Assembly: GCF_963921235.1 (NCBI RefSeq)
Contig: NC_086097.1
Location: 86,616,001-86,680,000 of the forward strand
Reading direction: 5' to 3'
Length of the DNA stretch: 64,000 bases
Source: Mobula hypostoma
Lineage: Eukaryota
Part shown: piece after piece, positions 30,299-36,150 of the stretch
How positions within the stretch are numbered: the stretch's first letter is position 1
Layout of the letters: the number at the start of each line of letters is the position of its first letter
The notes under the pieces: generated by a model
Database searches by the model: none
What the model was told of the DNA's origin: nothing
What the model saw: only the letters and a program-made list of their open reading frames with translations
Made by a program: the position numbers and the translations under genes

Positions 30299-30512
30299 TA
30301 GTATTGTTAGAGCATAATTGGCGCAAGACATCTCTTCTTGTACTGAAGTGTTCTTGTAACATACCATTTGTTTTCTTAATTGCTTGATGTGAATGTATGA
30401 TAACTTCTAGTGTTTTCTATTTAAAACACCTAGTTTCCTCTGAATACCTGCACCTTGCATCCTTCCATCATTTAAAAGTAATACTTCACATTTCTGTTTT
30501 TTGTATGCATGT

Positions 30513-31075
30513 GTTGTTCGTCCATCATTGACGTCGATGAGGACCTCGACACCATTATGATGGTGTCGAGACTAGCGCGTGATTTGGATTTAAGTGAGGG
30601 AGAGTTGCGCAGCGTCAGCCTCACTCTGTCTTCCCAATTCCCATCTGGATCCAGTGGCAAGACAGAGTCTAGACGGCTGGAGATGGGACTAGGCGCAGTG
30701 GATGACCAGGACGTCTCCTGTGTCTTGTCCTGCTCTACACGTTCCACAACGCTTGCAGAGACCGCCTTCTTCACCGTTGGACCTTCCATTGGTCTCGTCC
30801 GCTCAATCCGCCGGAGTCTGTCTTCACATGCTGGGATAGACAACTCCCTATCTCACCGAGGGTTTGAGACCCGTCGGCTACCCTGACCTGGTTTAGCCGG
30901 CTTGTCGAAGCCATTGCCCGGGGTGTGGCCACTGCCGCATGCAAACAGCTACGGGGAGCTACAGGTGAGAGCTGAGTGCCAGGTGGGGACCAAAGGTGGA
31001 CTAACCGCCCTGAAAAGGATGTGACCTGTTCCCCCACCAGAGGTGCTACCCCTCCCTGACACCCCATACGCCCCA
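30513..31075 (-). mobile_element. Non-coding RTE-type bipartite retroposon (~560 bp)
   Basis: CpG-rich (young). 9 bp TSD tatgcatgt (30504-30512 / 31076-31084). 3' end has stem-loops (perfect 11 bp stem 30545-30570) and a short (AAC)n tail; no RT ORF. RTE assignment is from recalled 3'-end similarity. Confidence 0.75.
30886..31065 (-). ncRNA. Candidate HDV-like self-cleaving ribozyme at the retroposon 5' end
   Basis: P1 GGGGUGU/ACACCCC; P2 ACCUG/CAGGU; P3 AGC/GCC; L3 starting UCC; GGGCAAU after P1'; P4 GGCUU-CGAC-AAGCC; J4/2 GGCUAA. All in HDV order. Confidence 0.65.
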
Positions 31076-34439: not shown

Positions 34440-36150
34440 ATCATATAACACAGTAGTGAATACACAGGCCCTCAGCCCACAATGTCTGTATTGAACGTAA
34501 TGCTAAATTAAACTCAAATGCATATGATTCATGACCCTCTATTTCCTGCACATTTGTGTGCCTATCTAAAAGCCTTGGAAATGCCACTACACTATCTACT
34601 TCCACCATTATTCATGGCAGTGCACTTAGACACCTGCTACTCTCTATTTAGGAAAAACCTTGCCCCCCACATTTCCTTTAAACTTTTCTTCTGTCTCCTT
34701 AAAGCTGTGCCACAGAGTATTTGATGTTTGTACCCCGAAAAACGGTTTTGACTCTCTACCCTATCGACGCCTAGTCATGATTTTATAAACTATCAGGTCT
34801 CCCTTCAGCCTTCAATGCTCCAGAGAGAACAATCCAAGTTAGTCTAACCTCTCCTTGTAGCCAATAGCCCCCAGTGTGGACCCCCTTGTTCTGCACCTTC
34901 TCTAAAGCCTCCACATCCTTTCTGTAATGGGACAATCAGAACTACACATGATTCTTGAAATGTGGTTTAACCAAAGTTTTAAATAGCTGCAACATGGTTT
35001 CTTGACTCTTACACTCAGTGCTGACTGATAAAGCAAGCATACCATATGCCTTCTTAACTACTCTGTCTATATGTGTTGCCATTTAGAGGAAACTAGGGAC
35101 TTGGATACATTCCTCCATATGTCGGTGCTGGGGGGGTTCCTGCCATTAACTATATACTTCCTCTTACATTGAACATCCCAAAGTGCAGCTGCTCACACTT
35201 GCCTGGATTAAACTCCATTATGTCCTTTCTCCACTCATATCTGTAACTGATCTATATCCTGTTATAACTATTGACAAATTTCTTCACTATCTGTAATTCC
35301 ACTAATTTTTGAGTCAGCTTTAAACTTACAAAGTAACCGTCTACATTTTCAATTGAAGTCATTTTATATGTTCACAAACAGCAGAGGTCCCAACGCTGAT
35401 CACTTTAGAACACCAGTGGTCACAGACCTCCAGCCAGAATAACACCCTGCCTCTGATACTCTGTCTTCTATAGGCAAGCTGATTCTGCATCAAAGCTACT
35501 AAATCATCCTGGATCCCATATATCTTAATCTTCTAGAAAATTCCAGCCTTTCTTGCACTGCGGACCGGTTTTATTATTGACAATATTCTTGCGAACCGGC
35601 CGACGGTGGGGGGGGGGGGGGTGTTCAAGTTCAGCAGTGCGTGACATGGAATGAGGAAAGGTGCAGCTGACTCGTATCGTTTCCTCGTGGCCTGGTAGCA
35701 CACGCTTTGCGGCCCCGTGTTGGGGACCACAGTTCTAGATCAGCCTATCATGAGGGACCTTATCAAATGCCCTGCTAAAGTATAAGAGACAAAATCTACT
35801 ACCCACCTTTATCAACCACCTTCACCTCAAAAAAAAACAAACTCCACATGACCTGCCCCACAAAGCCATACTGACTATCCCTAAGTAGCCAATGGTTTTC
35901 TAAATGCTCATGAATCCCGTCTGTAAGAATCCTTGTCAGTTGCTTCCTGATGTGTGGTTTACTGGCCTATAATTTCCTGGATTATTTCTATTTTCCTTTT
36001 TGAGTAAAGGATGAACATTGGCTATTGTCTCATTCCTGGATCTCACCTATGGCTAGAAAGGATACAGTGATCTTCGTCAAGGTGCCAGCATTCTCTTTTC
36101 TTGGCTCTTGATAACCTGGGATTGGTCCATCAGGCCCTGGGGACCCATCC
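34440..36150 (-). mobile_element. CR1 LINE 3' half (decayed), containing a hAT MITE
   Basis: Reverse-complement CR1 3' UTR and RT-coding motifs. Confidence 0.75.
35539..35732 (-). mobile_element. hAT MITE, same family as 43405-44625
   Basis: Shares both sub-terminal regions with 43405-44625; 8 bp TSD ttctagaa/ttctagat; one TIR damaged. Confidence 0.8.

Follow-up and report, generated by a model that had tools for sequence, protein, structure and literature searches.

A probable structural variant of the hepatitis delta virus-like ribozyme in the leader of an abundant retroposon of Mobula hypostoma

The DNA analyzed here is a 64,000-nucleotide stretch of the Mobula hypostoma genome (contig NC_086097.1, positions 86,616,001 to 86,680,000; referred to below as the window), and all positions given are those of the window, read on the minus strand unless otherwise noted. 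Our subject is a retroposon on that strand at 31074-30513, which is 562 nt long, or 563 nt when an extra T at 31075 is counted. An earlier note on the window had flagged the 5′ part of this element as resembling the ribozyme of hepatitis delta virus (HDV), and the flagged stretch corresponds to the 5′ ~195 nt of the ~562-nt retroposon. Our data suggest that this stretch is a probable structural variant of the HDV-like ribozyme class, of unusual and enlarged build, for which cleavage is predicted.

The boundaries of the element were defined by direct reading and with a script for target site duplications (TSDs), both of which gave a 9-bp duplication, ACATGCATA, with its 5′ copy at 31084-31076 and its 3′ copy at 30512-30504. 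The extra T at 31075 lies at the boundary between the TSD and the element, as indicated by the same script and by comparison of copies. At the other end, the 3′ tail (30513-30544) consists of GATGGACGAAC followed by (AAC)n or (AACC)n, and the window copy terminates in GATGGACGAACAAC. Next to the tail, ~30 nt from the 3′ end of the element, there is a perfect 11-bp hairpin, CTCGACACCAT/ATGGTGTCGAG with the loop CATA (30545-30570), which was read directly and is kept in 30 copies; possibly, it serves as a recognition site for reverse transcriptase (RT). The longest stop-free stretch of the element is of 124 codons and is antisense, on the plus strand of the window within 30513-31075, and there is no sense open reading frame (ORF) of note. 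We take the element to be non-coding.

Copies of this element, which we refer to as family E, were searched for in the window's own genome (3.48 Gb, 200 contigs). A first look gave 3873 candidates, and the 40 that were scored were all full-length and 96-97% identical. In an alignment of 30 copies the flanks were unrelated, TSDs were present, and the (AAC)n or (AACC)n tails varied in length. Based on this combination of high identity, unrelated flanks, TSDs and variable tails, family E represents a young, abundant, non-autonomous retroposon of the non-LTR (long terminal repeat) type. The element bounds were matched by loose ends at 30512 and 31075 in the contigs (Logan) of four public runs.

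The likely origin of the 5′ part of the element was indicated by a long interspersed nuclear element (LINE) at locus L031, 55 Mb upstream on the same contig, whose leader is 77% identical to nt 25-360 of the element (338 nt). Downstream of the leader, its reading frames match Exo_endo_phos (E = 1.7e-6) and RVT_1 (E = 6.7e-27), and the ORF extends to about the end of the LINE, i.e., the 3′ untranslated region is very short. This layout of endonuclease and RT with a very short 3′ untranslated region is as expected of an RTE-clade LINE. The LINE copy itself (L031:4107-8765) is ~4.65 kb in length, its frames are interrupted by stops and shifts, and its apparent TSD is ATGTTA(C/T)AG. The 3′ ~100 nt of the element had no match in this single LINE copy, the only one compared, and the 3′ end of that LINE differs from that of the element in having a 7-bp hairpin, GCTTCGG/CCGAAGC. 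These comparisons point to the retroposon being derived, with homology over its first ~335 nt, from the 5′ leader of LINEs of the same genome that encode endonuclease and RT, and they bear out the earlier description of the element as a non-coding, non-autonomous retroposon.

Related leaders were gathered from several sources. Family A is the LINE family of L031 (30 copies, L032-L061), family C is an older family (21 copies) and family F a further one (7 copies), the last two read from short pieces. Families D1 and D2 comprise four homologous pieces on three metagenome contigs that were located with an 18-nt pattern. These four loci (L088, L092, L096 and L097) are divergent homologues of the entire leader on three contigs of one assembly, and one of the contigs, of 2,056 nt, bears two leader copies ~1.9 kb apart. 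The metagenome contigs presumably represent animal DNA in the sample. No leader matches were found in a collection of viral contigs. In a collection of genome contigs, a GC-rich 15-mer gave 120 chance bacterial matches, none of which fitted the leader profile except for one 30-nt match (E = 0.007). Two other retroposon loci (L083 and L084) had no likeness to the leader.

An HDV-like fold could be drawn in all six families, four of them from this genome (E, A, C and F) and two from the metagenome (D1 and D2). The nested double pseudoknot order of paired (P), joining (J) and loop (L) segments, P1, J1/2, P2, P3, L3, P3′, P1′, P1.1, P4, J4/2, P2′, was present in the majority sequences of families E and A, as determined with a descriptor that is detailed below. 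Every sequence feature that the earlier note had listed was found where it had been placed on the minus strand. The order of the helices, the HDV-like boxes, a J1/2 that is large and structured, and an L3 containing a hairpin all recur across the six families.

Beginning at its 5′ end, the proposed 5′ strand of P1 is a first GGGGUGU unit (31068-31074; GGGGCGT in the window copy), which is complementary to the ACACCCC of P1′ (30926-30920, read directly). Between P1 and P2 lies J1/2 (30972-31067), a structured peripheral domain of ~96 nt outlined by RNAfold, RNAalifold and pair counts. The stem that closes this domain has as its 5′ strand a second unit (31055-31064; RNAfold minimum free energy structure and pair counts), and its 3′ strand is at 30983-30974 (RNAfold minimum free energy structure). 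The second GGGGTGT (31065-31059, read directly) is the sequence that the earlier note had assigned to the 5′ strand of P1. The 5′ strand of P2, CUCUCACCUG (30962-30971), pairs with 30890-30881, where P2′ reads CAGGUCAGGG in the window copy and CAGGUGAGGG in the family, based on the copy alignment and the contigs. CACCTG (30967-30962) and CAGGTC (30890-30885) were read directly in the window. The P2 drawn in the earlier note needs a small correction, as the helix of the family majority is CUCUCACCUG/CAGGUGAGGG, of 10 bp, with a C-C mismatch at 30885 in the window copy.

The remaining segments are arranged as follows. The 5′ strand of P3 (30958-30960) is AGC in the window copy and GGC in the family (29 other copies and nearly all contigs), and P3′ is GCC (30929-30927, read directly). 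L3 (30930-30957, 28 nt in the window copy) has the form U-CC-NN-G followed by a hairpin insert, the stem of which is formed by GCTGT (30949-30945) and GCAGT (30935-30931), both read directly. The CC of L3 (30956-30955, read directly) and a GG at 30918-30919 (pair counts) represent the two strands of P1.1, and a GGGCAAT box lies at 30919-30913. The P4 hairpin (30898-30913) is 5-6 bp across families and has double-sided changes between them; in the window copy it reads GGCTT-CGAC-AAGCC (30912-30899). J4/2, which is GCUAAAC, or GCCAAAC in family F, contains the putative catalytic C at 30896, within GGCTAAAC. This C occupies an invariant column (C179) and aligns to the GGCUAA of the Rfam family RF02682.

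The window copy carries five private core bases that are not shared by the 29 other copies or by nearly all contigs of the four public runs. Among these, a T to C change at 31070 breaks a P1 pair of the first unit, a G to A change at 30960 breaks P3, and a G to C change at 30885 breaks P2. The A-C mismatch in P3, which had been recognized earlier as a peculiarity of this copy, is private to it, as the other 29 copies and nearly all contigs have G. With these three substitutions disrupting pairs of P1, P2 and P3, the window copy is probably inactive. That is, the element in the window is probably a dead copy, and active source copies would be other members of the family.

Sequence conservation was unevenly distributed across the leader. 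The identity between families was 0.86 in the core (0.82 excluding the stretch fixed by the scan pattern) versus 0.56 in J1/2. In a set of 16 sequences of the six families, standard pairs occupied 95.9% of 606 cells, versus 38-49% when partners were slid by 1-3 columns, and double-sided changes were seen in 15 cells versus 4.4 +/- 2.1 in shuffles. An alignment of 80 copies gave 94.1% paired cells versus 32-53% in the slid controls. These pairing controls, slid and shuffled, are biased toward the fold, as the structure was read off the same sequences. P1 (GGGGUGU/ACACCCC) was paired at 7/7 positions in families E, C, D1, D2 and F and at 6/7 in family A. Within the 16 sequences, P3 (GGC/GCC) was 97.9% paired, eight of the ten P2 pairs were invariant, and the two P1.1 pairs were CG in 16/16 and 12/16 cells, the misses being caused by CpG decay.

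Covariation was limited to P4, the closing stem of J1/2 and hairpins within J1/2. Four of the six P4 pairs covary in the 16 sequences, with pair counts that include CG 10/GC 3/AU 1, CG 11/UA 5 and CG 7/UG 6/UA 3. The J1/2 closing stem (GU 47/GC 26, UA 47/UG 27, AU 29/CG 10) has many one-sided changes, and a J1/2 hairpin predicted by RNAalifold covaries as well (CG 52/UA 18, GC 45/AU 30, CG 50/UA 26). The covariation of P1 to P4 that the earlier note had proposed to test is seen in P4, but P1, P2 and P3 are conserved in its absence. Families D1, D2 and F have one pair fewer in the hairpin stem of L3, which reads GUUG/CAGC in D2.

The pattern of change within L3 is also of interest with regard to the HDV fold, in which the CC of L3 forms P1.1. 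Positions 1 (U), 2-3 (CC) and 6 (G) of L3 are fixed in all families, and only positions 4-5 vary (UCCCCG, UCCUCG, UCCAAG and UCCACG). Such variation would be expected of an L3 in which a reverse wobble joins U and G and the CC takes part in P1.1. The G of L3 is described in PMC3774820 as highly conserved and as forming a reverse wobble with a U of L3. The C homologous to 30896 is invariant in all families; the base that follows it is U, or C in family F.

The start of the element was examined in detail, as family E opens with two tandem 9-nt units, GGGGUGUAU GGGGUGUCA. The nine-nucleotide first unit of the window copy, GGGGCGTAT (31074-31066, read directly), is the tandem duplicate that had been reported between the TSD and the predicted first G of the ribozyme at 31065, and its presence there is confirmed. 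Nineteen copies of family E have a clear adjacent TSD of at least 8 nt. The complete first unit was present in 16 of these, 10 without extra bases and 6 with 1-8 extra nt in front, and the remaining 3 were short of the first unit by 1-3 nt; none began at the second unit. Judged by sequence, both units were complete in 23 of 30 copies, 1-3 nt were missing in 5 and most of the first unit was missing in 2. Families C, D1, D2 and F likewise begin with two units, and each of the three complete D copies, as well as the F copies that were sampled, starts at the first unit. The second unit is predicted by RNAfold to be paired with the 3′ end of J1/2, and this pairing is kept through changes in all families.

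Because of the copy starts and the pairing of the second unit with J1/2, P1 is more likely to involve the first unit (31074-31068) than the second, and cleavage would be expected 5′ of G31074 and not of G31065. The earlier note had held that the element begins essentially at the predicted cleavage site. This is upheld insofar as copies start exactly where a 7-nt stretch complementary to P1′ begins, but the position is 31074 instead of 31065, and the expected pile-up of 5′ ends at G31065 was seen in 0 of 30 copies.

A further feature of the starts is a T at position -1, which was found in 22 of the 23 family E copies with a complete first unit (from the window and loci L002-L030) and was part of an AT in 12 of the 23. 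In the window copy and in L004 this T lies outside the TSD. It could have arisen from an untemplated A added to the cDNA by RT, or by RT slipping back on the tandem unit and copying 1-3 more bases. The majority of family A has a single unit, with upstream partial units of every length. At the 5′ junctions of family A (L032-L061) the count of tandem 9-nt GGGGTGCAT units was variable, from a single T to nearly three units (L044:1493-1520). This variable number looks like the outcome of repeated copying of the RNA 5′ end or of ragged truncation.

To estimate how often such a fold occurs by chance we used a descriptor composed of ordered P1, P2, P3, L3 with CC, the GG of P1.1, P4 and a C in J4/2, with J1/2 of up to 130 nt and L3 of up to 32 nt. 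The relaxed form of the descriptor was passed by 24 of 30 family E loci and 9 of 30 family A loci, and it matched 5 unrelated loci in real DNA (596,274 strand-bases) and 15 loci in dinucleotide-shuffled sequence (3.2 Mb). The strict form, which demanded pairing as good as that of the family majority (7/7 in P1, 8 bp or more in P2 and 5 bp or more in P4), had 1 match in the 3.2 Mb of shuffled sequence. These figures leave out the coincidence of the start of P1 with the first base of the element. The motif is more than chance. The window copy fails the descriptor through its P3 mismatch. The sole other relaxed match in the window, at 35560-35760 on the plus strand, adjoins a run of 14 G and is likely a chance match, as it is without HDV-like boxes.

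Considering these data, we think it fairly probable that the source copies of family E carry a genuine self-cleaving HDV-like ribozyme. In the proposed mechanism, the leader of active source copies would fold into an enlarged HDV-like double pseudoknot. The first GGGGUGU unit would pair with ACACCCC to form P1, while the second tandem unit would close the ~96-nt structured J1/2 domain. P2 (10 bp) and P3 (GGC/GCC) would form the second stack, the CC of L3 would pair with the GG after P1′ as P1.1, and the C in J4/2, past the P4 hairpin, would act as the general acid. The transcript would then cut itself immediately upstream of the element's first G (31074), and this cleavage would free the retroposon RNA from a read-through transcript and fix its 5′ end. 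Self-cleavage of this kind would explain how a promoter-less element has multiplied.

A more far-reaching form of this proposal is one that we put forward tentatively, as possible and short of probable. It holds that the leaders represent an expanded HDV-like class, in which a hairpin is inserted into L3 downstream of the P1.1 strand and ahead of P3′, the cleavage pair is G-C and the P1 strand is repeated in tandem. The repeat units would split the tasks of forming P1 and closing J1/2, and RT slip-back would restore the U at -1, so that new copies can self-cut. Such a ribozyme would drive, in a vertebrate genome, both the LINEs and a family of thousands of copies that resembles short interspersed nuclear elements and was active recently.

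Non-LTR retrotransposons that carry HDV-like ribozymes at their 5′ ends were reportedly described by Ruminski et al. in 2011 in J Biol Chem. According to the review PMC6765202, such ribozymes are known in RTE and Baggins elements and their non-autonomous relatives, and also in R2 and L1Tc. The putative ribozyme described here shares with them a location at the very 5′ terminus of a LINE leader, the double pseudoknot order and the C in J4/2, as well as the presumed role of releasing a promoter-less element from a co-transcript. Unlike them, it contains a hairpin within an L3 of 26-28 nt, its cleavage-site pair is G-C, it has tandem P1-like units, it resides in a host genome of vertebrate size, and it is undetected by Rfam models.

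Some of these features have counterparts in R2. According to Eickbush, Burke and Eickbush (2013, PMC3774820), the J1/2 loops of R2 ribozymes are 216-498 nt in silkmoths, and a duplicated P1 allows cleavage, in their model, at either of two sites, so that the element's 5′ end moves. A very long J1/2, high identity of P1.1, P3 and L3, and a duplicated P1 sequence are common to that system and to ours. R2, in contrast, is site-specific in 28S ribosomal DNA (rDNA) and its P1 often includes 28S sequence; the P1 stems of fruit-fly R2 covary strongly, whereas P1 is invariant here; and no L3 insert is described for R2 in the text consulted, whereas one is present here.

Short derivatives that keep the ribozyme of a LINE have been described as well. 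R2 SIDEs are, according to Eickbush and Eickbush (2012, PMC3414825), non-autonomous elements that arose by internal deletion of a LINE and keep the 5′ ribozyme and a 3′ end. They are found in rDNA, whereas our element is dispersed and very abundant, and its 3′ end is unmatched in the one LINE copy compared. NARTc, as reported by Sanchez-Luque et al. (2011, PMC3185411), shares the 5′ HDV-like ribozyme of L1Tc, and NARTc RNAs cleave in vitro at +1. It is similar to our element in being a non-coding retroposon that carries the HDV-like ribozyme fold of its LINE. The L1Tc ribozyme is compact (77 nt) and doubles as a promoter, whereas the putative ribozyme here spans ~195 nt with two insertions. 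The hairpin in L3, the G-C cleavage-site pair and the tandem P1 units, each with its own proposed task, appear to be new, as does the occurrence in a vertebrate-type genome of very large size that also harbours a short derivative active until recently. A literature search found no paper on such ribozymes in fish or with L3 insertions, which is weak evidence, as the ribozyme literature was incompletely covered.

A number of observations weigh against self-cleavage. No Rfam family reached its gathering threshold in the 64-kb window, and in the window copy no HDV family was found even at E values as high as 10. For L014, a copy close to the family majority, the best of 4227 Rfam families was RF02682, the HDV ribozyme of F. 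prausnitzii, with GGCAAC, a short P4 and CGGCUAA aligned in register. That the best family is an HDV model, aligned in the right register, speaks for the ribozyme. This match scored only 13.2 bits versus a gathering score of 44 (E = 3.4), and by the model the copy is not a member. In HDV-like ribozymes a G.U wobble closes P1 at the cleavage site, a wobble on which a 2009 paper by Chen et al. reportedly bears. Here, all six families have G-C at this position (13 of 14 cells scored), and G.U is found in a few decayed copies (6/79). HDV P3 is of 3 bp and is capped by a short L3 of ~7-8 nt; the L3 described here, of 26-28 nt including a 4-5-bp hairpin, goes beyond this. No natural precedent for an L3 hairpin insert was found in the literature search, whose coverage of ribozyme papers was, as noted, partial. 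J4/2 is ~2 nt longer here than in HDV.

Other difficulties come from the alignments. P1, P2, P3 and P1.1 are conserved with zero covariation among the six families; as these helices never covary, it is conservation that argues for the pseudoknot, and such invariance could serve another function. The T at -1 would be absent from an RNA cut 5′ of the first G, so that an extra step must be assumed to account for it. In family A, the 5′ ends are spread across the whole upstream unit, and there is a C-A mismatch at the seventh P1 pair (28/79 cells unpaired).

It is conceivable, although in our assessment unlikely, that the conserved leader is a structured RNA or DNA element with some other job, such as cap-independent initiation of translation, binding by the element's own protein, RNA stability or internal promoter activity, with its 5′ end set by transcription initiation and its HDV likeness superficial. 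The invariance of P1, P2, P3 and P1.1 would suit a sequence-specific binding site or a promoter, and a T at -1 in 22 of 23 copies fits an RNA that starts one base earlier. The lack of an Rfam match at threshold, the G-C in place of G.U at the cleavage site and the large L3 insert would also be accommodated. This explanation has to contend, however, with the rarity by chance of the full ordered HDV topology (1 in 3.2 Mb), with an L3 that is variable only where HDV tolerates it and with the invariant C of J4/2. In addition, the majority sequence of the non-coding derivative keeps the core intact although it contains no ORF to be translated. The two readings are not exclusive, as a ribozyme and a role in translation coexist in R2 and L1Tc according to PMC6765202.

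We consider it very unlikely that an HDV-like ribozyme cuts instead 5′ of G31065, with the second unit serving as P1. The second unit is complementary to ACACCCC as well as the first is, RNAalifold places P1 on it, and with that assignment 85-93% of cells are paired in two helix parts; moreover, 8 of 30 family A copies retain only 0-2 nt of the upstream unit. Against this, no family E copy out of 30 begins at the second unit, and the first unit is complete in 23 and mostly present in 5, which indicates that the template RNA included it. The second unit also pairs with the 3′ end of J1/2, where one-sided changes keep the pairing in all families and one pair of the closing stem differs in both of its bases between families E and C (AU 29, CG 10). 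Least credible of all is a chance resemblance inside a repeat, a fold with no function: the relaxed descriptor does match unrelated sequence (5 loci in 0.6 Mb of real DNA), but the core is 82-86% identical across six families while J1/2 has drifted to 56%, P4 has compensatory changes, and P1 coincides with the start of the element in every family with complete copies.

If self-cutting by these leaders is true, the limits of the HDV fold would be widened, both with regard to L3 as a short closed loop and to the G.U wobble as a near-universal feature. As this RNA escapes current covariance models entirely, other large genomes may then contain ribozymes of a similar kind that have been overlooked. 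It would also explain in concrete terms how a retroposon with neither a promoter nor coding capacity could multiply to thousands of young copies in a genome of vertebrate size, and the tandem 5′ unit with its near-constant T at -1 offers a testable idea of how a cleavage site is kept after each jump. If there is no self-cutting, the strictly invariant pseudoknot strands would mark a functional leader element common to many LINE families.

During these analyses we noted a variant with a shortened L3 among loose ends in contigs of three runs (X1, X2 and X22). Strings near-identical to these loose ends trace to L082 (G000:C2:167661060-167661620), a family C copy in which the hairpin of L3 and P4's 5′ strand are deleted, and which was the one genome match at up to 3 mismatches. 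We did not use it as a natural variant, as it represents a single decayed copy in this genome with deletions in both L3 and P4.

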